The notes below the pieces were generated by a model. That model saw only the letters and a list, made by a program, of their open reading frames with translations, searched no databases and was not told the origin of the DNA. DNA of 64,000 nt. It comes from Candidatus Heimdallarchaeota archaeon (GTDB lineage Archaea; Asgardarchaeota; Heimdallarchaeia; Heimdallarchaeales; Heimdallarchaeaceae). The stretch is taken from the NCBI GenBank assembly GCA_018238545.1, contig JABCTC010000008.1:14264-78263 (forward strand), read 5' to 3'. Positions 35,146 through 64,000 of the stretch are shown here, piece by piece; the first letter of the stretch is position 1; each line of letters begins with the position of its first letter. The position numbers and the translations under genes were made by a program.

Positions 35146-35856
35146 TCATAGAGGAGGAAGGAGAGTACCAGGAAGGGAAGCAATGTTTTGGGCAGCATTA
35201 CTATGTGTGTTAACCTTCTGCCCACACTTCTTACAGGGAGCAACATCATATTGGTTTCGACCACGAACTAGTGTTCCTCCACAGCCATAGTGCAGAGTGC
35301 TGGTGTGATAAGGAAGAACTGATTCTAATTGCACATCATAGCCTAGCTCTTGAGAAGCTAACCTTACTGCTTTCTTGTAGATGAACAAACTGTCAGGCAT
35401 GGTGTAAATAGCTTTTGCTAAAGCTCCTTTAGTACCAGTAGGGTCAACTGTGAGTTGCTCAACCTTCAATTTTTTACACTGTTTTTTCATCATAACAGCA
35501 GCAAGAAAGTGGGGAAGGAGACGAGTAAGTTCGCGAAGAAGTCTCGACCGTCGAGTATATAGCCTGTTGAGCTCACCTAGTAACTTACAACAACCATGAG
35601 CATCACCTGCTTTACGCTTGCTAAGCAACCCACGATGGAGTTCGGGGAGAACTTTATCACTAAGATGAGTATAGTTTTTAGCCAAGTGCAGCAAATCAGG
35701 AGGGAGAGAAAGAGGAATATTAAATGCTACCATGTGTTTCCCTAAACGGTTGATATCTATACCTAGAATAGCTTGTTTCCTTCCAGCTATCTGGGGGAGA
35801 TAGGTGTGGAGAAGGGTAGAGGAGTGGAAACGAGCAATTTTTCTTCTTTTTCTCAT
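35146..35856 (-). mobile_element. tnpB: N-terminally truncated TnpB (IS200/IS605 OrfB-family RuvC-like nuclease). GC-rich relative to its surroundings
   Basis: RuvC-I GIDIN, RuvC-II KVEQL, TS...CGGT...C..CG zinc finger, and HSNAAQNIA RuvC-III. Only 236 aa with no WED/REC domain. No tnpA. Confidence 0.75.
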
Positions 35857-49442: not shown

Positions 49443-50342
49443 TTACAATTTAAGCTGATCTTCTTGTATTTGCACTGGCTCATTTGCTAATTTTGCCTTC
49501 TTATGAATGTCAATTTTGTTGACATAGTAGACTATTCCTTTAACTTCTGAAAGAGCGCCAATTATGACGTTTTTACCTTTAACATCCTGTTCAACGACTG
49601 TGTTGCTAATGTCTACTTCATCAATCGCAAAAACTGTGCCTTCAATACTAGATCTCTTTATTCTTCTAAGTTTGTGACCAAGGACATTCTTGTTTATGAA
49701 AACATCTGCTCCAACCAAGTTACCCTCAACAACCATTTTACCGTTTGCTTCAACAGTTCCCTGAGATAGTAAATTCCCTTTTGTTACAGACGATCCTGAA
49801 AAAGATACCCCTTGATCTGCTTGTAAATTGTCTCCACATTTGAAACTTCCTGATCCCTTTATTTTCCCTTCAACTATTACTTCACCACCAACCTTAGCAG
49901 AACCTGAAAATTTCACGTTTCCTCCTGCTTGAAGGAACCCAGCACAGGAAAATGACCCTGAGCACTTAACATCCTCATGAGCTGTAATACTGCCTCCACT
50001 TCTCAGGGATCCTGCAGCTTTTAGACTCTTGCAAACCAAGTCATTCTCGATTTTAGCAGATCCAGCAAATTTAATGTCTTTAGGAATATCTCCGCCACTT
50101 ATTTTGGCAGAACCCGCAGTTGAAAGAACTGTATCAGAACTGAGCTGAGCTCCAGACACTTTAATGTGTGGAACGGAACCATTTCTTCTTGCTTCAAGTT
50201 TAGATTGTTCTAATTTTCCTTGATATCTTTCTTTTAGTTCAGAGTAATTTCCTTTATCAATCTCTCCACTTTCAAATTTTTTCTCGAGTAACTCGAGCAA
50301 TTCTTCATACATTTTAACTTCATTATCGGACATATTTATCAC
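49443..50342 (-). CDS. Bactofilin-like beta-helical polymer-forming protein with an N-terminal SHOCT-like helix
   Basis: Repeated KISG/KFAGSAKI/VKCSGSF/VKFSGSAKVGG/IKGSGSFKCGD units typical of bactofilin (DUF583). N-terminal YEELLELLEKKFESGEIDKGNYSELKERY resembles SHOCT. Confidence 0.6.
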   Translation of the reverse strand: MINMSDNEVKMYEELLELLEKKFESGEIDKGNYSELKERYQGKLEQSKLEARRNGSVPHIKVSGAQLSSDTVLSTAGSAKISGGDIPKDIKFAGSAKIENDLVCKSLKAAGSLRSGGSITAHEDVKCSGSFSCAGFLQAGGNVKFSGSAKVGGEVIVEGKIKGSGSFKCGDNLQADQGVSFSGSSVTKGNLLSQGTVEANGKMVVEGNLVGADVFINKNVLGHKLRRIKRSSIEGTVFAIDEVDISNTVVEQDVKGKNVIIGALSEVKGIVYYVNKIDIHKKAKLANEPVQIQEDQLKL

Positions 50343-50497: not shown

Positions 50498-50628
50498 TGG
50501 TGCGGGGAGGGAGATTCGAACTCCCGAACTACTAAAGAACGGATGACTTTTCTTTTTTCTAACCCTTATTTTTTGGCTTTAAACCAAGATCTTAAGTCCG
50601 CCGCCGTTGGCCACTTGGCTATCCCCAC
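50498..50628 (-). tRNA. tRNA-Leu (anticodon UAA) with a roughly 46-nt intron (about 50545..50590) in the anticodon loop, and encoded CCA
   Basis: The exons are identical to the tRNA-Leu(CAA) at 17907..17991 except for the anticodon arm and variable arm. A 46-nt insert follows anticodon-loop position 37/38. Confidence 0.8.
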
Positions 50629-50914: not shown

Positions 50915-52006
50915 ATGGTGGGGGGGAGAAGATTTTTAGCTATTGTTATGTTAGCGTGCATCTTATTACAAACTACTTCTTCTCCTAGAGCCATTTTACC
51001 ATATGGTGATTTATTTTATTCCAATTTTCTGGTTGTAGGAAAAGAGCTAGAGTGGAAAGTTAGTGTTCTTGATTGGTCAGGAAACGAATCAATTTATTCT
51101 AAAGCCTATATTGACGATACTAACCTTTCTCAAGGAGATAACGTGAAACTATCGGTAACTCATGATCCTAATATTTTCCTCAATAATTTAATGACTGAAA
51201 GTGAATGGTTAAACATCTCCTTAAACGGACAAGAAAAGCGCTTTTATGCTTCTGATGTTCATCTTGGAGCTCATACTTGGATTTATGGGAATTTTTTCAT
51301 TTCTCCAGTTATTGACAGAATAGAAGATAATTTTACACTATTATTTGAAAAATATTATGCCCACGTAAAATCTACAGAGTACAATAACACTGAATATTAC
51401 ACAGATATAGGTGAGACGTATTCTATTGCCTTGATTAATACAGAGTATTTGCTCTTTAATATTTCAGATGTTCTTTTCAAGGAAACCTTCTATTATTGCG
51501 AATATTTTAATGCTGTTGATAATTGCTATGAAAATGAAGAAGAAAGCCTCTTCAAGCTATACAGCGTTTTTTATGAATCTGTGATAGATATTGAAAGAGG
51601 GACATTATTTTCTTATAAATGTTATATTAATTCTGTATGCAACTATACTTCTGAACTAATAGAGAACGAATATGCTGAAGACCACTATTACTTATTGATA
51701 GAAAACAAAGATAAAACTACAGGCTACGCTAATGATTTAACTTCAACTAGTACAACAGTGTCTTATGAAACTATTTTTGGCATAAATGTCAACCATATCG
51801 TTATTGGAATGGCGATATTCACTGCCTTATTTGCCACTGTGGAATGGTTCTATGCGCAGAAAAAAGAGAAGAAAATCAAACAAGTTGAAAAACGACAAAT
51901 AGCTGGATTCGCAGAAAAGATTAAGAGAGCTATGCAGCCACAAGAGAAAAAGGACAAAGAAAAATCTTCACTCACAAAGTCTACTACATCTAACTTGTCA
52001 AAATGA
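50915..52006 (+). CDS. Secreted surface protein with a C-terminal TM anchor and a Lys-rich cytoplasmic tail
   Basis: Signal peptide. Many NxS/T sequons. TM helix IVIGMAIFTALFATVEWFY followed by a KKEKK-rich tail. Confidence 0.5.
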   Translation: MVGGRRFLAIVMLACILLQTTSSPRAILPYGDLFYSNFLVVGKELEWKVSVLDWSGNESIYSKAYIDDTNLSQGDNVKLSVTHDPNIFLNNLMTESEWLNISLNGQEKRFYASDVHLGAHTWIYGNFFISPVIDRIEDNFTLLFEKYYAHVKSTEYNNTEYYTDIGETYSIALINTEYLLFNISDVLFKETFYYCEYFNAVDNCYENEEESLFKLYSVFYESVIDIERGTLFSYKCYINSVCNYTSELIENEYAEDHYYLLIENKDKTTGYANDLTSTSTTVSYETIFGINVNHIVIGMAIFTALFATVEWFYAQKKEKKIKQVEKRQIAGFAEKIKRAMQPQEKKDKEKSSLTKSTTSNLSK

Positions 52007-53255
52007 TTACACTAGCAATACTTACACATGCTCGGTAAAGGCCAAAGAAAGCAAGTGGAAGAAGTATCTTTATTATTGTGAGAACATTTTTTCTATCCTT
52101 CTCCCTATCTGTCTTTTTGAAGATTATAACATATAGCTTGTTTAATGAAACAAGTGAACTGAAAGTTGTACAGATGAGAAAAATAGTTGATAGAGTTTGT
52201 AATAATATATTTAATGTTTCATATATTGAATGCACTGAGAGGATTTCTGAATTTAATACTAGCATGAAATATTGAGGCGAATATTCATAGAGGGTATTAA
52301 CAAGTAATAACATTAAAATTCTCATTGCAAAAACCATAGTAAGGATAAGGATTGTTTTACTAATAACAACCAGAGACGGATTTTTTTCTTTGTTTAATTC
52401 AGTATTAATTATGTCTGTACCTCCAATTATTTTGCGAAAGTAATAATTCACTGAACCAGTTGTTTTTACGTTAGAATTCCTAGATATTTTCCTATGTTTA
52501 CCTAGTGCTAAAAGAAAAAGATGACGTGATAACCCAATTATTACGACAAGAAATCCTCCCATCGAGAAAAAATCAAGAAAATCATAAAAATATCCCCAAT
52601 TGTGATCAATGAGCTGAGGATAGTAGAAATAAGGGTGGAAAGAGGTGTATACAAATAGCACAATTGAGATAATTAATGCAATAACTGTTTTTATTATCAT
52701 CTCCTTATGTGTAGGTAATTTAGCTAATGGGTTCTTAGTCACATGATTTGCCGTTTTTCCTTTTTTGACCATTAGTGTTCCTCCCAGTATGTTGAACACG
52801 ATTAGTCCTGCAATAACTCCAAATATTAACCACCAGTTAATTTTGGTTGGTTCTGAAGACAAATATTCAAATGATTCAGTAAACTCTTTACTATTTATTT
52901 GGTCATAAAAACGAATGTTAAGAATATTCAACTTGTAGAGATAGTCTTCTGGTAATTTAACAATCAATATGCTATATATTGAAAGCAATTCTGTTCCAAA
53001 TCTTATTCTACAATTCTCCGTTATTTCTATGTCATTAAGAAAGACGCTGAAGCCTATTGGACGAGGAAGGTTCATTAAAGTGACGTGAATCTCTTTATTT
53101 TGTTCCATTATCTGTATTTTTGTTATTTCTATATCCTTTGCAGAGCTTGCGCCTTCAACAGTGCTACAAAGAAGAACCATTGTGATTAGAAAGAGCACGA
53201 TAAATCTAGTTTTCTTCATTAGTGATATAACGAAAACATCCCATAAATACACCAC
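51990..53255 (-). CDS. Multi-pass membrane protein with an N-terminal signal peptide and a small ectodomain
   Basis: Signal peptide, about 120-aa ectodomain, then at least 7 hydrophobic helices. Confidence 0.45.
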   Translation of the reverse strand: MVYLWDVFVISLMKKTRFIVLFLITMVLLCSTVEGASSAKDIEITKIQIMEQNKEIHVTLMNLPRPIGFSVFLNDIEITENCRIRFGTELLSIYSILIVKLPEDYLYKLNILNIRFYDQINSKEFTESFEYLSSEPTKINWWLIFGVIAGLIVFNILGGTLMVKKGKTANHVTKNPLAKLPTHKEMIIKTVIALIISIVLFVYTSFHPYFYYPQLIDHNWGYFYDFLDFFSMGGFLVVIIGLSRHLFLLALGKHRKISRNSNVKTTGSVNYYFRKIIGGTDIINTELNKEKNPSLVVISKTILILTMVFAMRILMLLLVNTLYEYSPQYFMLVLNSEILSVHSIYETLNILLQTLSTIFLICTTFSSLVSLNKLYVIIFKKTDREKDRKNVLTIIKILLPLAFFGLYRACVSIASVIILTS

Positions 53256-53443
53256 AGAAAATTAGTTCTTAATGTATCATAGATAAAAAACAAGAAAAAT
53301 AAAGAAATTTAACATTATGGGTGCAATCTCGTAGGATCTCTTGGTAGTAATCGCACTTCTCTAATATTTGGTAAATCAAGTATTTTTTGGACAAATCTTT
53401 CTATTCCAGTTCCACTGCCTTCGTATGGTATTCACAGATTTCT

Positions 53444-53821
53444 TCAAATCCAGTCCTTTCTCCAGTCATCATAGTTATCAGGAAGTTTTTCTGACTCATC
53501 AAGAGTATTATTGTTGAGTTTTTTTCTATAATAAGTTTCATTATTCTTAAAAATATCATACCAAGCTGAATTAATCAGTTCATTTATGAAAGGGATAAAT
53601 ACTAGGTTTAGTAGTACTAATAGTATTGTTAGAATACTTAGAACCAGGACTATCACAGGTGATTCAATTACAATGATAGTAATTAGGACAGTAATTAAAA
53701 TAACACTATAAATTATCTGCCAATTAGAACGTCTTTTATCCTGTTCTAATAGGATTTCTTTACTATTTTTTTTCTCTTGTTTTTTTATACTTTCAAGATT
53801 GAATATTTTCATTTTAATCAA
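53444..53821 (-). CDS. Small two-TM membrane protein
   Basis: Hydrophobic segments IIYSVILITVLITIIVI and VLVLSILTILLVLLNLVFIPFI. Confidence 0.35.
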   Translation of the reverse strand: MIKMKIFNLESIKKQEKKNSKEILLEQDKRRSNWQIIYSVILITVLITIIVIESPVIVLVLSILTILLVLLNLVFIPFINELINSAWYDIFKNNETYYRKKLNNNTLDESEKLPDNYDDWRKDWI

Positions 53822-54241: not shown

Positions 54242-56020
54242 GTGATGTGTTATAATATGACCAGTTTCAATGGTAAAACTTCCAAAGAAATAGAAAGCAA
54301 ATTTCAAGAATTGAAAATGAAAGTGTGGAATTATATACTAAAGGATGATCATGAGAATATACCTCAATCTTTGTTCCAACATTTAGAGGATGAATTCAAT
54401 AGAATAGAAACTACATATGATATAAGAGATGACAAACTTAATCTTTTTCATGTAAAACATAACTATTTACTAACAAAATTTTACGAATTCTTTAATAAAG
54501 ATCAAACAATTTCAATGGAATTGTTAATTGATGCTCTCTCTTTCTTACTTGAAAGACACTTGTTAAGAAAGTATCAACCTCAAACATTTGAGAAAATGTT
54601 ACTTCCATACTTTGTTGCTATTGGAAAAATAAAACCACAAGCTGAAAAAATACATTGGAATCAAATTGAAGGCAAATTTCTGAAATTTCTAGACAAGTAT
54701 ACTAAACAACTAAACTTCGCTTCGAAGAATCTTGGAGGAATATTTGACAATCTTACAAGATTGTTCTTCGAGGGCTTCTACGAAAAACGAGTTTCCACAT
54801 TTAGTACTAGAGGAGAATATCTTGATGCAAATGAGATTAGTAGTAGAGTTAATACCATTCTATCTAATCTTATGGATGTTCATAGTAGTCGTGAAACAAA
54901 TACAATTTCCTACGGATGGGAGATATTATACAAAATAAAGAAAAGGCAATTGCATTATTTAGTTAGATTCAACTATTTTGAGGAAACCACAGAGAAAAGA
55001 CAATCTGTAAAGAAAGAAATAGAGATTATAACTGACGATATGTGTCGATATTCAAGCTATTCACTAAAAGCTTTTGAAAAATACTATAAAAACAGAATTT
55101 CTAATGATGAAGGAAAAGAAGAAGATTTCTTATACAAAAAAACACTAAAAGAACTTGATACCTTTACTGCTTCCTATTTCTTGTATGCTTACTCAAAATT
55201 AGATATACTCAAAGCTTGGAATGTTTTGGATAAGATAAAAACTTATTTAGTTGGAAAAGCATTTAAAGAAAATGTTCCACTTTCTGATACGCTTCTAGAA
55301 TATTACGGTGAAGAATGGTCAGTACTCTACATTTTTGCAAAAATCAGTCTTTTAAGAGAAGAAATAATGAAGAGAGAAAAATCTGTAAAACAAGAATGGC
55401 AAAAAGAGATGTTTAAGAGAATTTCTTTAGTACTAGAAGAGGAAAAAAAACTATTCAAGTATGAATTAACATTGAAAAGGGATTATAACCTTAAGATTAT
55501 GACATCACAATTCGCAGGGGGTTTTTCAGAATACCTTATACATGATTTAGCTCAAAAATTCTATGATTTCGGTCCACTTGATGAACAGAAACAATCTGCT
55601 TTTTTTGACTTATTTCACTGCATAAAAACTATGTCTACTAAAGATGACATAGTTTTGAATAAAAGATTATCTCAAAATGATCCCGATATTGATATTTATA
55701 TGAAAAACAAAGGTGCATTGTTTTTAAAAAATTCCACAATTGAAGCAGATGAGATGAAACAATTGTGGAAGGAGTTAACGTTATGTAACAATAAGAATAT
55801 TAAGAATGTTTATTTTGGGATAAATTTTGTTAAAAACATCCATAAAATTGAATATATTCGAGTAAATTTCAAAAAAATGACAAAAGAGTATTCTGAGATG
55901 TATATTTCAGTTTTTGACATAAAAGATTTGGTTGAGGCACTATTTCAGGAGCTTGAAAGAAGTAAAATGCCAAAAACGACCTTTCAGAAGATGGATTTTT
56001 ATAGAATTTTAGATTATTAA
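54242..56020 (+). CDS. Large all-alpha cytoplasmic protein of unknown function
   Basis: 592 aa. No recognisable motif. K/E/Y/F-rich. Confidence 0.45.
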   Translation: MMCYNMTSFNGKTSKEIESKFQELKMKVWNYILKDDHENIPQSLFQHLEDEFNRIETTYDIRDDKLNLFHVKHNYLLTKFYEFFNKDQTISMELLIDALSFLLERHLLRKYQPQTFEKMLLPYFVAIGKIKPQAEKIHWNQIEGKFLKFLDKYTKQLNFASKNLGGIFDNLTRLFFEGFYEKRVSTFSTRGEYLDANEISSRVNTILSNLMDVHSSRETNTISYGWEILYKIKKRQLHYLVRFNYFEETTEKRQSVKKEIEIITDDMCRYSSYSLKAFEKYYKNRISNDEGKEEDFLYKKTLKELDTFTASYFLYAYSKLDILKAWNVLDKIKTYLVGKAFKENVPLSDTLLEYYGEEWSVLYIFAKISLLREEIMKREKSVKQEWQKEMFKRISLVLEEEKKLFKYELTLKRDYNLKIMTSQFAGGFSEYLIHDLAQKFYDFGPLDEQKQSAFFDLFHCIKTMSTKDDIVLNKRLSQNDPDIDIYMKNKGALFLKNSTIEADEMKQLWKELTLCNNKNIKNVYFGINFVKNIHKIEYIRVNFKKMTKEYSEMYISVFDIKDLVEALFQELERSKMPKTTFQKMDFYRILDY

Positions 56021-56286: not shown

Positions 56287-56631
56287 CTAGCTACAAGCCA
56301 ACATCTGATCTATTTCCTTTTGTTTGAACAAGATAATTTTGAAAGAACAGTGCTTGTTAATGTGTTCAACCATTTCTGAAGCAGTAGAACTAAATCTGTT
56401 TGCAATTATTATAGCGCCATCACATTGTAAATCCCCTATTCTTTCCTCAGTTTTGATAATAGTATTTGTCCCTACCTTTTTCTTCCAATCAAAGATAAAA
56501 ACGGCATACCTTTGGGTTTTATCACTGACTATGAAGGGTTTAATCACATCTATTTCATCACATAATTGGTCAACCTTACCATAACGATGCAAGAAAACCC
56601 ACACTTTCGTTTCCATCTTTCCAGCAATCAT
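56287..56631 (-). CDS. Small protein of unknown function, possibly a restriction-endonuclease-like (PD-(D/E)xK-like) fold
   Basis: 114 aa. VFIFDWKKK...IIKTEER could be a degenerate D...ExK-like core. Very tentative. Confidence 0.25.
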   Translation of the reverse strand: MIAGKMETKVWVFLHRYGKVDQLCDEIDVIKPFIVSDKTQRYAVFIFDWKKKVGTNTIIKTEERIGDLQCDGAIIIANRFSSTASEMVEHINKHCSFKIILFKQKEIDQMLACS

Positions 56632-56746: not shown

Positions 56747-57421
56747 ATGTCAAAAAAATTAAGTAATATATTGGCTTTTAGTCTGTTTTTCTTTGTACTT
56801 CTATTTCCAAATAGTTTAATTACTGGAAGTACACCCACAATTGCTTCCAGAATCTCTCAGATCACAGAAATTTCTGTAACTACGGATAATAGTTATGATA
56901 AACCTAATACTACACTTTTTAGAATCAATGTTTCCGTAGAAATTTTAAACAGGAACACTGAAAATTATACGGTTATAGAAACGGCAGATCATTATCCGAA
57001 AATTGTTATCAATGCTTCATTTGTAAATCAAACGTTAGGATTAGAGCCTATTATAATAAGTTTAAATATGGGAACTGAGTATATTTATCAACCAGCGATT
57101 ACAGAGGAATATGAAAGCATCAAATTTTATATTAATCAGACCAATTTAGCTTGTCTCCCGGATGGTAATTATACTATTATTAGACCAATCAACACAGCAT
57201 CTAAATATGGGGGGATTGAAGCTGCAGAGATGTTACCAACTTTAATCCGAGTTACTTCAGGTATTACAAACATTACATATGCCAATTTTACAGACCTACC
57301 CCTTCCTGAAGTAAGTTCAGCATTCACAGCTACTCTTACAACTACTTTCTTACTACTAATTTCATTCTTTGTAATGACAAGGAAAAACTCAACCAAGTTG
57401 AAAAAAGCAGGTTTATTTTAG
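56747..57421 (+). CDS. Secreted surface protein with a C-terminal TM anchor
   Basis: Signal peptide. NxS/T sequons (NVS, NYT, NAS, NQT, NIT, NFT). C-terminal TM plus RKNSTKLKK. Confidence 0.5.
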   Translation: MSKKLSNILAFSLFFFVLLFPNSLITGSTPTIASRISQITEISVTTDNSYDKPNTTLFRINVSVEILNRNTENYTVIETADHYPKIVINASFVNQTLGLEPIIISLNMGTEYIYQPAITEEYESIKFYINQTNLACLPDGNYTIIRPINTASKYGGIEAAEMLPTLIRVTSGITNITYANFTDLPLPEVSSAFTATLTTTFLLLISFFVMTRKNSTKLKKAGLF

Positions 57422-57693
57422 TAGATTATGCTTTGTTATGATGCTCTAATCTTTTTTAGTCTTTCTTCATAATGTGAAAAGCACTCTTGCAGGAATCTTA
57501 TTTGCAGTTTTGCGCTCTTCTTTTGTTACAGGAATTTATTATTGTGTTTTATATTTCGTATTGTGATGAGAGAACAGACATCAATGAATACTTAGATTTT
57601 TCTTTCTCCTTATCTTTCTACTGATCTCTTTAGGTTTTGGGAAGATTCTTTTACCTCCTTTATAAATGAAATTGATTATGATTAAGATAGACA

Positions 57694-60600
57694 ATGAAAA
57701 AAGTGAAATTGAAAGTAATATTAATACTGCTCTCTATTAACCTAGTTCTTGTAAACTTGACGGTTTCAAGTTCTGACTATAGTAATAGTGAACAATTCGA
57801 ACAAGTTTCATCTTTGCTACCAGAAGACATTGTTTTTACTTACAATTCTTCCTTTTGCAGTCAGGAATTTTCTTTTGAAACTTCTATTCAACTGGACAGT
57901 TTTAATAGTTTTATCTTGTTTTTTGCTACTTCTGGAGACAAAACTACTAGCGAGGGCATAAAAGTCACTTTGAGTTTAGAAAAAGTGGAAGTTGTGTTTA
58001 ACATTGAAAGATTGTTTCAAGACACTTTTAATCACAACCTTACCCAAGCATTTTCCTATCCTGAGTTTGTTAATGGTAAAATGAATATTACTATAACCTG
58101 TGAAGCTCAAACTTCTTCTTCGTATTACTCTGGTTCTTTGAGAATCTTTAGCCAGACAAAAACGGAAAAAATTATTCCACCAACAATCACTGAAAGCTCT
58201 TCCCCTCTTCCCGTTGTTCCTAATTGGCTAGAATTTAAGGGGAGTATATCAACACCTGAAATAAGAAGTATTAGAACTGCTTTTAACAATTCCAATAATT
58301 TTGAAAAACTGAATCTTACCATTTCATTTAGAGCTAGTGATTTTTCAGCTTACTTACGGCAGTTTGAAGTGAAATTAAATGAAAATGTAATAAGTACAAA
58401 AGATTTTAAGAACAATCAACTAACGGAAGAAAAATTTTTCTTCTCCATAGATCCAGGATTAAATTTCTTGACAATAAATTTTATTGTGGAATTGTGTATG
58501 GATACAATTCAATTAACCAATATCTGTTTAATTGGAAATGGGATGAATGTTGAAAATATTCTCCCTGCAAACACTTACGATTGGTTGGCATGGGAAAATA
58601 ATGACGTTAATTATGTTTTTGATTTATCCTCTTTCAAACCTGTGTCAATCGGTTTAGAGCAAATTCTACAAATTGGTATTAAATATGGTTGTTTTGGAAC
58701 AGATAGACCTCCTGAGTTATATTATGAAGTTAAGTTAGGTATGAATGTAATAGATTCTGGTGAAATCTCTGAATCTGAACAAATTAGCTCTCCTCAAACT
58801 CTTCTTGTTCATACACCAGTTACCAACTATAATGACCCTTTAACTTTTAGAATTCAAGGGAGGGCAGAGGGATATGGAATTTTTTACATTCTCAACACAA
58901 GCTATGTCACTATCGAACCTTTACCAGAACTAAACGAACAAAACCCTTTGGAAAGAGAATTAGTTGAAATGGAAGTACACCTTACACCACTCTCTGAACC
59001 CCTTATCCTTATTTTTAGAGATTTTTTCAAAGTTAATTTTAGTTATTTGAAATGTAATATCTCTCTTTCTTTTTCTCTGACTGATGAGTTTGGTTCTTCT
59101 ATTAGGCAAATAAATCTTTTAATGAAACTTAATTGGCAAACAGTTATTGACCACCCAATAGCTTATGAGGATCAGATAAATGTCACGGAGTCAGAAATAT
59201 TATACAATAAAATGTATGCTGCCACTATCACCTTGTCTATTTATGGTGATGGACACACTATAACCTTAAGTAACTTAAAATATGTTCTTTTTCCTTCCAA
59301 TTCAAACAATATAACAATCCCTGTTCCTCCCACACCTCCAGCAGAAAGTAATAGTGACAAAGAACCAATTCATCCATCTAAATTATCTTTACTTTTCATT
59401 GAATATGGTATCATCATCCTTGGATTAACTCTTTTAATAACCCGAATTCTTTCTAATAGAGAGAAGAAACAAGAGAACACTGATGGAGAAACTCAAGTAG
59501 ATGACATAGAAATCCAAGTTGTTGGTAACAATACACAGCATGGACACTTATCCAAATTGCTGCAATCGACTAAAGATTGGTACCTAAAAGCAAAAGAATC
59601 TTTATCGCGAATCTTATTACTCCCATTAACGGTTGTTCATGTTATCGCTAATATAATCTGCCTTAGTCCAATTATTGACCAACTTAATGAAATTGCTTAT
59701 AGGGAGAGCCAAGAAGTTAAGCTTGTTGTACTGGGGACAGTAGGATTTTATTGTCTCATGGTCAGTGTTTATTCCTCAACTTTTGTGGCATTTTCTGTAT
59801 TCTATCTTGCTTTTAGTGATACTTTTTATGAGGATCTGTTTCAATTTACCAAAATTCTTGGTTATTTCGTTCTCATCCTCTTTTTTTCGTCTTGGATAAC
59901 TCTATTCATTTATATCCAACAAAATAGCCCAAATCTTGGAATGCTTGGTACACTCATTGTTCCGTTCATATTCTTAGGGGTAATTATTTTTCTTGTTTGG
60001 TTGGGTAAAACAAAAGAAAAACAATTTGAGAGATTAGTAAAAAACTTCTTTAAAACAGGACGAATAAAGGTAAACAACATTAGAAGTAATGATAACGAAG
60101 CAGACTCAATGATTGAAGAAGAATCTTTATCTAACACGCAATACGATACCCACTTTCAGAAGATTGTCAATCTTATTATTCAAGACATTTCTATAAAACT
60201 TCAAGTTCCTGTAAATCGTTTTACTGAACTTCTGAGCATTTCGCCAAGATTAGCACACAGATTGTTAATAGACGTGTCCAATAAAATCCCAAAATTAGGG
60301 AAATATTATATTACAGAGCAGATTTATATCCGCAGTGCTGATAGTGAGATAGGGGTCGATACACTAGAAGATAGGACAGAGGAAAAAGAAGGGGAATTAA
60401 TATCGAAATATGATAAGAATAGTGTGAATAGTGAAAAAACTGCAAATAACCATGATGATATGGAAAATCAAAATAATGAAAAAACATCCAAGAAATTCAA
60501 GGATTATTGTGATTTAGATTCTAAAATAAAAAATGAAACTATCAAACAAATAGAAGAGTATTCTATTTATAAGGATTATAATGATGGTAAAATTCTTAAT

Positions 60601-63600
60601 TCAGTGTTAATACGTGGAAATAAGTCCCAATTTACTGGATTAGAGAGTATAGAACCCCATTATTGCAAATTATATAAATCCATAAATTTGGGAGTAAATG
60701 TAGAAAACACAATAATAGACTTTCTCACTCAAATAGTAGATTTTTATAATGAACTATCTATAGTTCTTTACAATAAACATAATTTTGAAGCAACCAGTGT
60801 GAATTCAACAACAAATCACAAAAAAGTACCATTTAGTGTTGTTGGATTAAGAGAGAATTTAGCGAATATTAGAACCATTCTTGAAAGAGCAAATTTACTT
60901 GACTTGCTAATCACAGACATAACCTATAACTTAGAAATCATTTTAGAACGAAATCGTAAATATACCGAAGTTTTACCTTTTTTCAAGTTGCTTTTATATT
61001 CAGCGAACTTAGTCTTGATAGCGAATCAAGATTTGAAAAAAAAGAAAATTGTGAATCCTTCAGTAGATTTGCTATCCGAATTCTCTAAGTTTGATTTTCA
61101 AGATACATTAAACCTTATTACTTCTTTTTGTGGAATTGAACTACTTGGTGAAAAAGAATTCAAGAACGGCAAGATTATAAGAAATGGTATTTTAAAATTT
61201 AATGAACAAATAGGAGAAGTAGAACTTCACAGACCATATTTTGAAAATTTTCTTTCAAAAATTACTATTAAAATTGATGAAAACTCTATCATTAATTACT
61301 TCTATAAGGGGCATTCAGGGATTGATGAAATGCTTCCGAATATTTTTCTTGAAGTGAAATATAGTTCTTCCTTGAATGATGTTCTGAACAATTTTACTTA
61401 TAAAACAATATCATCAAGTACTTACCATATCAAAAATAGATATATTAGAGGTTTAGAGATCGATCCTCTTATGATTCTTTTTGGTGCAATAAAAATACCT
61501 CTAATCATTAAATCGAAAAATAGTAACTACAATTTGTATGATATCTCAAACTACAAAGATCTCTTTGAACTGTATTTTTCACTAACAAATGATAAAAAGA
61601 AAAAAAACGTTTTGAGTACTTTAATACCTTCATTTCAAGAGTATTTTAAATATAGATCGAAGGAATATGGTTTTGGTCAAAGAATGATGTTATTAAGGAC
61701 TTTAGCAAGTAAGAGTAACTTATTAACTCCTGAAAAACTCATAAGATTTGTTTCATTTTTGCAACTTCATACACTTGTAAAGGACGGTTTACTTACTAAA
61801 TTCTTATTCTTTAACATTGGGAAAAATAACAGATTCATAATGCACAAAATAAACACAATAACTGGGCACTCTACTGATTTTGTCACAGATAGTCCCTTCT
61901 ATCTAGAATCTAACTCAGCTTACATAAGTTATAGAACTGATCAAGTTGGTAAATTTTTAACATATTTAGGTGTTACAGAATGTCCAGATGATGTAAAATT
62001 TACCGGATGCATGGAAAAATCCTATGAAGTTATTGATGGTGATTTTGCTTCTGGCTTTATTTTCTTTTATTATAAAAATAAGACACATCGCAAATATGTC
62101 CTTGGTTATTGTGTTCTGAATGAATTTGTCCAAGACTTTGCCCGAATGAAATTTTCTAAATATCTACTAGATGGAAGTATAAATCCTTTTAATGATCCCT
62201 TTGATGTGCAATTGGAACTAACGACTTACAGAGTGTCTCCTTTTAATGAGTTTAAGTTTGAGTATTCACTAGGTAAAGAAACCTTTGTTTCATTGGATGC
62301 CATTGATACAGATTTAGTGGCATGTAAACTTGAAAAAATATCCATTTATTCTTTTCTTTTTAAAACAAAAAACCAACAAACAGACGACATAATATGGAAA
62401 CAAAAGGAAGTTGAGTTTAGTCCTTATAGTTTTGATAAATTGTTGAAATATTCTTCAGAAATTGGAAATAAGGAGAAAGAGTTTATCTATATGACTTTTT
62501 TGGATGTAGAAGGCAGTCATCTTTTCTCTAGTTATTCTCCCTATTTTAGATTCGATCGAGGATTCGGGCAATGCTACTTTGGTGGAGATCATAAGAATGT
62601 TACTCCTTCTATGAAGGCTTTAAAACGAGCTGAAATGGCTCTATTTATAGAAGCACGAAAAACTAAAGGATTAATCTATACTTATGATGGATTCCAATAC
62701 CATTTTGAACTTACAACTGTTCCTATTAACATAGCGATATCCCAATTAATTAGTATTAAGAGGAAGCTTACCTCTATTTTGCGAAATATTAAAGATAAGA
62801 ATATATCCTCTTCTGATTTAAATTATGCTAGAAATCTGTTTGTTCTTTTGTATCAAAACCATGCCATTGACTATGAACGATTTAAGGGAATAGCACAAAT
62901 TAAGGATTACGATGAGTTATTCTCTATTCAAAACCTCTCTAAGTCTTTAAGTCTACTTATAAATAAGATTGGAGAGACTATGAATTATTACTGGGAATTG
63001 TATCTTCATGCACCATTTTTATTTGCAAATGTGAATACTTATTGTGATGAATTTGGTATTGAACAAATATATTATCGTAATGTAATTTATAACGGAATAA
63101 CAAATGTAATTCCAGATCATAATCCAATTGGACAAAGTTTGTTCATTCTTACAGATTTAGAAAATAGTAATATTAAGAATTTTACTCAGAGATTCAAGAA
63201 ACTAAAAAATTTCAATGGGTATGAATTTAGTAGAAAGACAAATTCAGAAACATATACGCAAATAGATTATGTTTATGATTCACCTTTTTCTTTCATTCAT
63301 AATGTTACTATTGCTGACAATCTGTCATCTATAAATGGTTATCAGGATTTTATCGTGAATTGTGGTCTAATTAATTTAAAAAATTCAAAGATATTGCATC
63401 TCCTTTTTGGTAATAGTGTAGAATATAAATCTAGAAATAATTTTTATAGATTGATAAAACTAGTCAAAGATTATAATAGGGCATTATATTATAATGAAGT
63501 AGAAGAATCGTATTTTTCAGTAGATTCTAAAAACATTGAAGAAATAATCGCCCTTATTGATAAAGGAAATACCCATAAATTATCGAAATTTGATGAACTC

Positions 63601-64000
63601 TATATCTATACACACATGAAACATATAATGTCTTCTTTGCAAAGGGATTTAACCTGCAATAATGAGCTAAGAAGTGCACTAAATAGATGTTCAAATACGA
63701 AAAAAAGAATTGATGTAATTTATGGGTGGGTAAAACAGCACTATATTGATACTAATGAATTATTAAATACTCTTTCTAATAATCAAATGGTATATTTTTT
63801 CAAAAATTACCCGACTCGTGGTCATAGTGCATCTATTGAAGCTACATTGTTTACCTATTCCTATTTTGTTGATAGAATAAAAAACATGCACAGAAGGGAG
63901 GAATTTATTTATCTAAGAGAGGATTTGATTAAAGTAGAACGAGGCGAGATTTACCTTAATGAATTCCTTTTCAAAACTGTAAAATTGATGGTCGAAAAAA
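57694..64000 (+). CDS. Giant (more than 2100 aa, 3'-truncated by the window end) membrane protein: signal peptide, roughly 540-aa glycosylation-sequon-rich ectodomain, 6 TM helices, and a cytoplasmic domain of over 1400 aa with unknown function
   Basis: Manual codon-by-codon read: ATG at 57694 and no in-frame stop through 63999. Absent from the ORF track because there is no stop within the window. N-terminal MKKVKLKVILILLSINLVLVNL signal. TM cluster at about aa 565-780. Confidence 0.7.
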   Translation, partial: MKKVKLKVILILLSINLVLVNLTVSSSDYSNSEQFEQVSSLLPEDIVFTYNSSFCSQEFSFETSIQLDSFNSFILFFATSGDKTTSEGIKVTLSLEKVEVVFNIERLFQDTFNHNLTQAFSYPEFVNGKMNITITCEAQTSSSYYSGSLRIFSQTKTEKIIPPTITESSSPLPVVPNWLEFKGSISTPEIRSIRTAFNNSNNFEKLNLTISFRASDFSAYLRQFEVKLNENVISTKDFKNNQLTEEKFFFSIDPGLNFLTINFIVELCMDTIQLTNICLIGNGMNVENILPANTYDWLAWENNDVNYVFDLSSFKPVSIGLEQILQIGIKYGCFGTDRPPELYYEVKLGMNVIDSGEISESEQISSPQTLLVHTPVTNYNDPLTFRIQGRAEGYGIFYILNTSYVTIEPLPELNEQNPLERELVEMEVHLTPLSEPLILIFRDFFKVNFSYLKCNISLSFSLTDEFGSSIRQINLLMKLNWQTVIDHPIAYEDQINVTESEILYNKMYAATITLSIYGDGHTITLSNLKYVLFPSNSNNITIPVPPTPPAESNSDKEPIHPSKLSLLFIEYGIIILGLTLLITRILSNREKKQENTDGETQVDDIEIQVVGNNTQHGHLSKLLQSTKDWYLKAKESLSRILLLPLTVVHVIANIICLSPIIDQLNEIAYRESQEVKLVVLGTVGFYCLMVSVYSSTFVAFSVFYLAFSDTFYEDLFQFTKILGYFVLILFFSSWITLFIYIQQNSPNLGMLGTLIVPFIFLGVIIFLVWLGKTKEKQFERLVKNFFKTGRIKVNNIRSNDNEADSMIEEESLSNTQYDTHFQKIVNLIIQDISIKLQVPVNRFTELLSISPRLAHRLLIDVSNKIPKLGKYYITEQIYIRSADSEIGVDTLEDRTEEKEGELISKYDKNSVNSEKTANNHDDMENQNNEKTSKKFKDYCDLDSKIKNETIKQIEEYSIYKDYNDGKILNSVLIRGNKSQFTGLESIEPHYCKLYKSINLGVNVENTIIDFLTQIVDFYNELSIVLYNKHNFEATSVNSTTNHKKVPFSVVGLRENLANIRTILERANLLDLLITDITYNLEIILERNRKYTEVLPFFKLLLYSANLVLIANQDLKKKKIVNPSVDLLSEFSKFDFQDTLNLITSFCGIELLGEKEFKNGKIIRNGILKFNEQIGEVELHRPYFENFLSKITIKIDENSIINYFYKGHSGIDEMLPNIFLEVKYSSSLNDVLNNFTYKTISSSTYHIKNRYIRGLEIDPLMILFGAIKIPLIIKSKNSNYNLYDISNYKDLFELYFSLTNDKKKKNVLSTLIPSFQEYFKYRSKEYGFGQRMMLLRTLASKSNLLTPEKLIRFVSFLQLHTLVKDGLLTKFLFFNIGKNNRFIMHKINTITGHSTDFVTDSPFYLESNSAYISYRTDQVGKFLTYLGVTECPDDVKFTGCMEKSYEVIDGDFASGFIFFYYKNKTHRKYVLGYCVLNEFVQDFARMKFSKYLLDGSINPFNDPFDVQLELTTYRVSPFNEFKFEYSLGKETFVSLDAIDTDLVACKLEKISIYSFLFKTKNQQTDDIIWKQKEVEFSPYSFDKLLKYSSEIGNKEKEFIYMTFLDVEGSHLFSSYSPYFRFDRGFGQCYFGGDHKNVTPSMKALKRAEMALFIEARKTKGLIYTYDGFQYHFELTTVPINIAISQLISIKRKLTSILRNIKDKNISSSDLNYARNLFVLLYQNHAIDYERFKGIAQIKDYDELFSIQNLSKSLSLLINKIGETMNYYWELYLHAPFLFANVNTYCDEFGIEQIYYRNVIYNGITNVIPDHNPIGQSLFILTDLENSNIKNFTQRFKKLKNFNGYEFSRKTNSETYTQIDYVYDSPFSFIHNVTIADNLSSINGYQDFIVNCGLINLKNSKILHLLFGNSVEYKSRNNFYRLIKLVKDYNRALYYNEVEESYFSVDSKNIEEIIALIDKGNTHKLSKFDELYIYTHMKHIMSSLQRDLTCNNELRSALNRCSNTKKRIDVIYGWVKQHYIDTNELLNTLSNNQMVYFFKNYPTRGHSASIEATLFTYSYFVDRIKNMHRREEFIYLREDLIKVERGEIYLNEFLFKTVKLMVEK

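Follow-up and report, generated by a model that had tools for sequence, protein, structure and literature searches.

A giant predicted membrane protein gene of Candidatus Heimdallarchaeota with a conserved N module and exchangeable, putatively cytoplasmic cassettes

The giant gene and its conserved N module

The gene described here was found at the 3' end of a 64,000-nt stretch of DNA from Candidatus Heimdallarchaeota archaeon (GenBank assembly GCA_018238545.1, contig JABCTC010000008.1, positions 14,264 to 78,263, forward strand). This whole stretch is called the window below, and positions are window coordinates unless a locus is named. An initial annotation, made from the letters of the window without database searches, had proposed an unlisted giant open reading frame (ORF) encoding a multi-pass membrane protein. 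Comparison with homologues divided the encoded protein into two modules: aa 1-~930 would form a surface and membrane core, and aa ~932-2351 a giant, soluble, cytoplasmic cassette. By the alignments, the cytoplasmic back part is an exchangeable cassette and not a conserved family domain. The features of the locus are listed in Table 1; homologous loci and proteins carry L and P numbers, respectively.

Translation from the ATG at 57694 to the window end gave 2102 sense codons and zero stop codons. The local DNA is ~30% GC, a composition at which stop codons are frequent, so a frame of this length cannot have arisen by chance. An in-frame TAG at 57688, 6 nt 5' of the ATG, makes this ATG the earliest possible start, and the homologues open with the same peptide, MKK.KLK.... 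The 3' end was supplied by contig JABCSZ010000037.1 (L009; GCA_018238645.1), which is identical to the window over 61095-64000 (0 mismatches in 2906 nt) and then runs on through the final 249 aa to the stop, giving a complete protein of 2351 aa. Full-length homologues of 1750-2283 aa are present in independent assemblies, and the gene is confirmed as genuine. The stop-free frame reported by the initial annotation was thus recovered in full, and its absence from the supplied ORF list has the cause that had been presumed, which is also the sole one: the frame leaves the window end. In practical terms, a real 7-kb gene had been overlooked by ORF tracks for this reason. A TATA-box-like sequence ends 28 nt 5' of the ATG; if it serves as the promoter, the transcript would be of the leaderless or short-leader archaeal kind.

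The head of the L009 contig differs from the window. Its nt 1-246, which lie opposite window 60849-61094, are unrelated to the window and contain the end of another ORF followed by an ATG. Translation from this ATG opens with MRKKEIKAKNP and is in frame with the cassette from aa ~1134. This head may be a chimera formed at the contig end or, alternatively, an 'orphan' cassette copy that stands alone and is truncated.

All long forms shared positions 1 to ~890/930 of the protein, with identities of 40-85% (BLASTP). An AlphaFold 2 (AF2) model of aa 1-935, built on 5 sequences, had a mean predicted local distance difference test score (pLDDT) of 38 and was used for secondary structure alone. The signal peptide read by the initial annotation was recovered by hydropathy, as an AF2 helix and by its conservation in homologues (Table 1). 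The extracellular region of ~540 aa that had been placed behind it was also retained. Its AF2 secondary structure was all-beta at low confidence (aa 55-153, 179-281 and 383-532), it probably consists of three beta-sandwich-like units, and it had no match in Pfam or PDB. The dense NxS/T sequons that had been described for it were not upheld, since 10 were observed against 8.0 expected from composition (P=0.25), though 6-7 of the 10 were positionally conserved at ~50% identity, versus 1 of 11 in the C part. The ectodomain is probably glycosylated.

Behind the ectodomain, one transmembrane (TM) helix followed by about five more had been counted originally. The number was revised to five in total by hydropathy (aa 564-582, 640-658, 675-705, 721-739 and 750-768), in agreement with five long AF2 helices. 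An amphipathic W(W/Y)LKAKES motif is invariant in the first cytoplasmic loop. Five TM helices, together with basic (positive-inside) residues after TM1 and TM5, would place everything past aa ~770 in the cytoplasm. A P-loop at LGKT, at the end of TM5, was rejected on the homologue alignment and a motif scan, in line with the initial annotation: homologues have not kept the G of GKT, and the protein lacks a Walker A motif throughout.

A stretch resembling a winged helix (WH) had been noted just after the TM block. This segment is among the best-conserved cytoplasmic stretches of the family and obtained the best scores of the AF2 model (pLDDT 53-59), with helices at aa 814-830, 840-847 and 851-864 and strands at aa 871-878 and 891-898. 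A profile of aa 800-900 gave sub-threshold matches that were all to helix-turn-helix (HTH) or WH domains (HigA HTH, E=0.9; TP6A_N of Top6A, E=0.031), and a match of the unit to Rep3_N WH1 in one member was likewise below threshold (E=0.0013). The assignment is plausible but unproven: conservation and the predicted order of three helices and a beta hairpin speak for it, while no HTH or WH match reached its cut-off.

Five short paralogues (P0008-P0012, 831-892 aa) were recovered by a profile search with the N module, with 30-32% identity over the ectodomain and TM block. The five-TM block is common to them and to the long forms; they lack the winged-helix unit and the giant part, and their short C-terminal tail carries a CxxC…CxxC zinc ribbon. 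The existence of such stand-alone paralogues of ~840 aa indicates that the ectodomain and TM core is autonomous. One of them was found in MAG bin51 (MAG, metagenome-assembled genome), which also holds the long copies L005 and L008.

Some further observations concern these genes. L005 and L008 are 82.5% identical over 298 aa (BLASTP) and both end at contig ends inside the N module, which would fit an assembly that broke at a gene present in several copies or varying between strains. A TnpB/Cas12f-like gene, 82-87% conserved, is the divergent neighbour of a short paralogue in three contigs, and the short paralogue of L012 also adjoins PLD-nuclease-like and Apyc1/MBL-like genes. The translation of window 35176-35829 (- strand) shares 45% identity with the C-terminal third of this TnpB/Cas12f-like protein, so the window holds a TnpB-like gene or a remnant of one.

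Cassette exchange at the junction

The initial annotation had described the remainder of the protein as an enormous cytoplasmic region in which no known catalytic motif was recognised. This description was upheld, as Walker A, HExxH, DExH or similar motifs were not found in any C part; the region is not a single family domain, since close relatives carry unrelated cassettes. The C-terminal 900-1600 aa of the long forms could not be aligned between types by BLASTP, phmmer or hhalign. An origin of the C parts as far-diverged homologues was rejected, the hhalign probability between cassette types being <1%. The sole exception was a weak colinear similarity between the C parts of the window and P0002 (phmmer domain E ~1e-5), and the window C part was unrelated to those of L004, P0006, P0001/P0005 and P0003. 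Six cassette types were distinguished among eight genes, with the window/P0002 pair counted as two. An AF2 model of the window C part, built on 2 sequences, reached a pLDDT of 27.

The change from conserved to unrelated sequence is abrupt at the nucleotide level. The window and L004 are 85-100% identical up to position 60486, with 100% identity over the last ~95 nt, and fall to ~40% immediately afterwards; the same abrupt break was seen in L003 and L006. P0006/L013, with ~82% N-module identity, departs at ~60442, ~45 nt earlier, into yet another sequence. Breakpoints at different points of one polar linker argue for homology-guided exchange rather than for one site-specific recombination site. 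The N modules of the window, L004 and P0006 are ~82-85% identical and are joined to three different cassettes. A further pair, P0001 and P0003, is 79-96% identical in the N module, in a patchy manner (TM block 96%, ectodomain 83%), but the C parts of the two, 891 and 1387 aa long, are unrelated.

The reverse was seen between P0001 and P0005, which occupy a syntenic locus and are just 51-62% identical in the N module and 70% identical in the C part. The dN/dS of this cassette was 0.17, below that of any N-module part (0.19-0.48), and the cassettes are on this account constrained, functional protein regions and not decaying tails. The GC content of the window cassette is 0.284 versus 0.325 for the N module, and complete cassettes were AT-richer than their own N modules in all five loci (5/5). 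By these comparisons the cytoplasmic module is functional and is exchanged through recombination: each cassette would be held under purifying selection within its type and swapped wholesale by recombination in the polar linker. The initial annotation missed this modularity because it is not visible from one sequence.

A conserved N-terminal part, a hypervariable C-terminal part and a sharp junction between them are the hallmark of polymorphic toxins, which include CdiA-CT, Rhs-CT and MafB. The concept is reportedly that of Zhang and Aravind and, for archaea, of Makarova et al. 2019. A classical toxin of this type would use the N module for trafficking or anchoring and release its C-terminal toxin to competitors, for example through a secreted S8 protease whose gene lies near the giant gene at other loci. 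The giant family also shares with these toxins non-homologous C regions that follow a conserved stretch, recombinational exchange, a lower GC content of the C regions and a variable genomic context. It differs from them in what surrounds and fills the cassette. Polymorphic toxins have a downstream immunity gene, often followed by orphan cassettes, neither of which was found at the giant loci: in the complete loci the stop is not followed by any immunity-like gene, as housekeeping genes begin 17-130 nt on or only a 39-aa ORF lies between, and there is no orphan cassette array. The cassettes are 5-10 times larger than those of polymorphic toxins, they are predicted to be cytoplasmic and not exported, and no known toxin, pre-toxin, secretion or trafficking domain was matched, a Sec signal peptide being the only export feature. 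The toxin explanation was rejected on these grounds (no immunity gene, no toxin domain, no predicted export of the C part, cassettes far too large) and is regarded as very improbable.

Table 1. Features of the giant-gene locus and of related loci. Positions refer to the window except where a locus is given.
Feature	Position	Strand	Evidence or remark
Giant ORF, aa 1-2102 of 2351	57694-64000	+	Stop-free frame, leaves window; end from L009
TATA-box-like sequence TTTATAAA	57659-57666	+	Read from sequence
Sec-type signal peptide, aa 1-24 (MKKVKLKVILILLSINLVLVNLTV), predicted	57694-57765	+	Hydropathy peak 2.34 at aa 6-24; AF2 helix aa 2-23; kept in homologues
Beta-rich ectodomain, aa 25-560, predicted	57766-59373	+	43-84% identity to homologues; NxS/T sequons conserved
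Five-TM block, aa 564-768, predicted	59383-59997	+	Hydropathy, AF2 secondary structure, homologue conservation
Winged-helix-like unit, aa 814-898, putative	60133-60387	+	In all long forms, absent from short paralogues
Polar, acidic linker (…GELISKYDKNSVNSEKTANNHDDMENQNNEKT) with recombination junctions	60388-60486	+	Nucleotide and three-way alignments
Variable C-terminal cassette, aa 932-2102 (932-2351 complete)	60487-64000	+	Soluble, mostly helical by prediction
224-aa type-I membrane protein	56747-57421	+	Signal peptide, sequon-rich ectodomain, C-terminal TM helix, basic tail
114-aa Mrr/REase-like protein	56287-56631	-	Pfam Mrr_cat E=0.006, PADLOC REase_II E=0.005, weak
592-aa ORF	54242-56020	+	No Pfam, PADLOC or PDB match; not found near other giant-gene loci
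125-aa two-TM protein	53444-53821	-	PADLOC '2TM effector' E=1.6e-4; Pfam SLATT_4 E=0.0013, below cut-off
AspRS 3'-end pseudogene remnant (…GSGTGIERFVQKILDLPNIREVRLLPRDPTRLHP*)	53315-53443	-	Last ~37 codons and stop; in-frame stop upstream
Short paralogue genes	L012:4831-7509; L014:2108-4603; L015:1618-4125

Genomic setting and distribution

The genes next to the giant ORF encode surface or membrane proteins, as the initial annotation had stated. Orthologues of the 224-aa partner, 46-52% identical, lie 5' of the giant gene elsewhere as well, adjacent to it in L001 and L003 and ~1.5 kb away in L010; the partner had no Pfam match. The 114-aa Mrr-like gene is also present in L001 and L008, where it lies a few kb 5' of the giant gene. 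A secreted S8 protease is encoded upstream in every locus but the window, either in a 393-aa form or in a 589-aa form with TSP3 repeats, and no S8 gene was found within the 64 kb of the window. On the 3' side, the neighbour is AspRS in the window/L009, ABCE1 in L002 and L010, and Csl4 in L001 (after a 39-aa ORF), and the giant gene lies elsewhere in L003; an unrelated 336-aa gene is also among the 3' neighbours of the complete loci. The upstream gene is 95% identical between L002 and L003, but the two loci have different proteases, cassettes and downstream flanks, by which the locus is a mosaic.

The protease bears on a second explanation, in which the long forms are ordinary membrane receptors or tethered regulators: old paralogues with different outputs, whose N modules have been homogenised by gene conversion. 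Such a receptor would possibly signal by regulated proteolysis, in which cleavage of the ectodomain by the S8 protease frees or activates the cytoplasmic part with its winged-helix unit. ToxR/CadC and anti-sigma factors of the RseA/RsiV type are known examples of membrane-tethered HTH or regulated-proteolysis signalling, and the giant family resembles them in having an ectodomain, a TM segment, a cytoplasmic HTH-like unit and, beside the gene in all loci other than the window, an extracytoplasmic protease. Two long copies and one short copy in a single MAG make paralogy real, the patchy identity between the N modules of P0001 and P0003 fits gene conversion, and purifying selection acts on all parts of the protein. 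The family departs from these regulators in its unproven HTH, five TM helices, giant variable extension and lack of a site-2 protease, and the window itself is without the S8 gene that a regulated-proteolysis system would use. No regulator of this kind is known to have cytoplasmic outputs of 900-1600 aa in which a signalling domain cannot be recognised, and three N modules of ~82-85% identity, each with a different cassette, also speak against the receptor explanation; the lower GC and shifting genomic position of the cassettes suggest turnover and not stable paralogy. The receptor explanation is the main rival of the role proposed below and is judged somewhat unlikely.

A third explanation arises from the composition and borders of the locus. 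From ~52 kb on, the GC content of the window drops from ~0.33-0.36 to 0.28-0.31. An intact, convergent AspRS gene starts 53 nt past the giant-gene stop (L009), and the AspRS remnant listed in Table 1 has the same orientation, so that the AspRS 3' end is present twice as direct copies, which are ~80% identical and have no long identical core. Bracketed between the copies are ~11.4 kb that carry the 2TM-effector-like ORF, the 592-aa orphan, the Mrr-like gene, the 224-aa partner and the giant gene. The arrangement suggests that the segment was inserted into the 3' end of AspRS long ago.

The giant gene may on this basis be the cargo or core of an integrated mobile element, with the cassette acting in exclusion, maintenance or transfer in the manner of the giant orphans of aloposons. 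The low-GC segment between AspRS copies, a chromosomal context that differs from genome to genome and the orphan, lower-GC C parts are in keeping with such an origin, and giant orphan proteins on mobile elements of Ca. Heimdallarchaeum have been documented (PMC8813620). The expected machinery was missing: the giant ORF and the ORFs of 125, 592, 114 and 224 aa gave no match to a recombinase or integrase family, and the segment contains no recognisable integrase, transposase or replication gene. The divergence of the AspRS copies, the lack of similarity in viral, phage and plasmid collections and the absence of a tRNA gene from the fetched sequence around the other loci also count against a mobile element, which is considered improbable.

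Aloposons themselves (Otus/Ephialtes) have tandem genes for proteins of 3000-6000 aa, an upstream ParA/MinD-like gene and integration beside a tRNA gene that lies downstream of the giant genes (PMC8813620). The giant protein of the window resembles theirs, which are associated with mobile DNA, in its host clade and in its very large ORF without recognisable domains. Assignment to an aloposon was rejected: there is a single 2351-aa gene, its downstream neighbour is AspRS and not a tRNA gene, and no ParA-like gene was present among the ORFs scanned at 47.4-57.4 kb. An exhaustive search gave no homologue of the window C part.

Three observations were made further upstream. Window 50915-53255 encodes orphan proteins of 363 aa (signal peptide, C-terminal TM helix) and 421 aa (signal peptide, multiple TM helices), neither of which had a family match or was found at other giant-gene loci. 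A 128-nt tRNA gene at 50501-50628 (- strand; Rfam, 39 bits), missed by ARAGORN and presumably intron-containing, just precedes this run of surface and membrane genes. Between SRP54 and this tRNA, a 299-aa ORF at 49443-50342 (- strand) gave a near-threshold bactofilin match (25.8 bits versus a cut-off of 27.9).

The housekeeping genes around the locus are archaeal (SRP54, aIF2-alpha, Rpo4, L21e, KsgA and Pus10), and the host belongs to the Asgard archaea. Relatives with conserved neighbours, which the initial annotation had proposed to seek by profile search, were recovered from Heimdallarchaeota alone. Every family sequence is MAG-derived, and all members come from MAGs labelled Candidatus Heimdallarchaeota or Heimdallarchaeaceae. 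With only ~8 long-form genes and 5 short paralogues recovered from 5.8 billion protein clusters, from the GTDB species genomes and from a metagenome collection, the family is extremely rare, and it is confined to Ca. Heimdallarchaeota. Two metagenome-contig scans yielded just one locus, which was already in the set, and relatives were absent from the viral contigs, the INPHARED phages and the PLSDB plasmids that were scanned.

No above-threshold match to Pfam, NCBIfam, PADLOC or PHROGs was obtained for the whole protein, for any C part or for the short paralogues. PDB sequence and profile searches were empty for the C parts, for the N module (4- and 11-sequence profiles) and for the 592-aa neighbour. 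Of the findings named beforehand as arguments against the initial annotation, an in-frame stop was not seen in the window and a confident match of the cytoplasmic region to a known family was not obtained in these databases. An exhaustive phmmer search of the window C part against 1.84 billion representative proteins returned itself alone. A search with concatenated C parts returned P0001 and P0005 and not P0003 itself, so that relatives of the P0003 and L004 cassettes were only weakly tested. A literature search found no account of the family.

Possible role in conflict or recognition

In the role proposed here, the conserved core would stand at the cell surface, where it senses a signal or is processed, possibly by the S8 protease, and would signal across the membrane; the exchangeable cytoplasmic cassette would contribute a strain-specific specificity or effector activity. 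The protein would then be a polymorphic, membrane-anchored sensor or effector that serves in conflict, such as defence against viruses and mobile elements, or in self/non-self discrimination. A rough probability of 0.4 was given to this reading. It was suggested by the restriction of the family to one lineage, the polymorphism at a sharp junction, the AT-richer cassettes, the mosaic, mobile context and the weakly defence-like neighbours. The initial annotation had named the gene as a candidate for an undescribed sensor, signalling or surface system; the exchange of cassettes moves the likely biology towards a polymorphic conflict or recognition locus, and the original interpretation is partly supported overall.

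Several points weigh against a role in conflict or recognition. No cassette domain matches a known effector, nuclease, NTPase or sensor, and the giant proteins gave no PADLOC hit. Among the defence-like neighbours the matches are weak and sub-threshold, and the 114-aa gene is the only one of these neighbours to recur at other loci. With ~8 long-form loci, from MAGs only, alleles and gene-converted paralogues are indistinguishable, and one MAG has two long copies. The topology and folds were read from hydropathy and secondary structure, both AF2 models being too poor (pLDDT 38 and 27).

The VARTIG module of the Thermococcales is centred on a large Ig/CARDB-domain surface protein. Recombination between genomes makes the C-terminal region of this protein hypervariable, and roles in conflict or self/non-self recognition have been proposed for the module (PMC8416519). 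The giant locus is, like VARTIG, archaeal and lineage-restricted, with a recombination-variable C-terminal region. The two differ in what varies: in VARTIG it is a ~200-aa extracellular Ig domain together with downstream genes, whereas in the giant family it is the 900-1600-aa cytoplasmic region. The giant protein had no Ig-family or CARDB match in Pfam, its gene is not followed by a downstream gene array and its host is a member of the Heimdallarchaeota, so it was not classed with VARTIG.

A more specific form of the proposed role, put forward as speculative and on balance doubtful, is a new polymorphic system in which the glycosylated core is fused through the winged-helix unit to interchangeable, unrelated cassettes that lack homologues, the cassettes being strain-specific determinants of intracellular identity or immunity. 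These determinants would act either in incompatibility after cytoplasmic contact or fusion, comparable to fungal het/NLR loci, or in abortive infection triggered at the surface. If this is true, the archaeal lineage that is closest to eukaryotes would have an antiviral or self/non-self system of a new class.

The cassettes comprise six or more large protein 'folds', which are 900-1600 aa long, are under purifying selection and have no relative in ~15 billion predicted proteins. If the modular reading of the gene is right, the locus would be among the very few known archaeal loci that are hypervariable and shuffled by recombination, and the first in Asgard archaea, with a layout, a conserved surface part joined to a variable giant cytoplasmic part, that has no described counterpart. 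It would also provide an entry point to how viruses, mobile elements or neighbouring cells are dealt with by the prokaryotes most closely related to eukaryotes.

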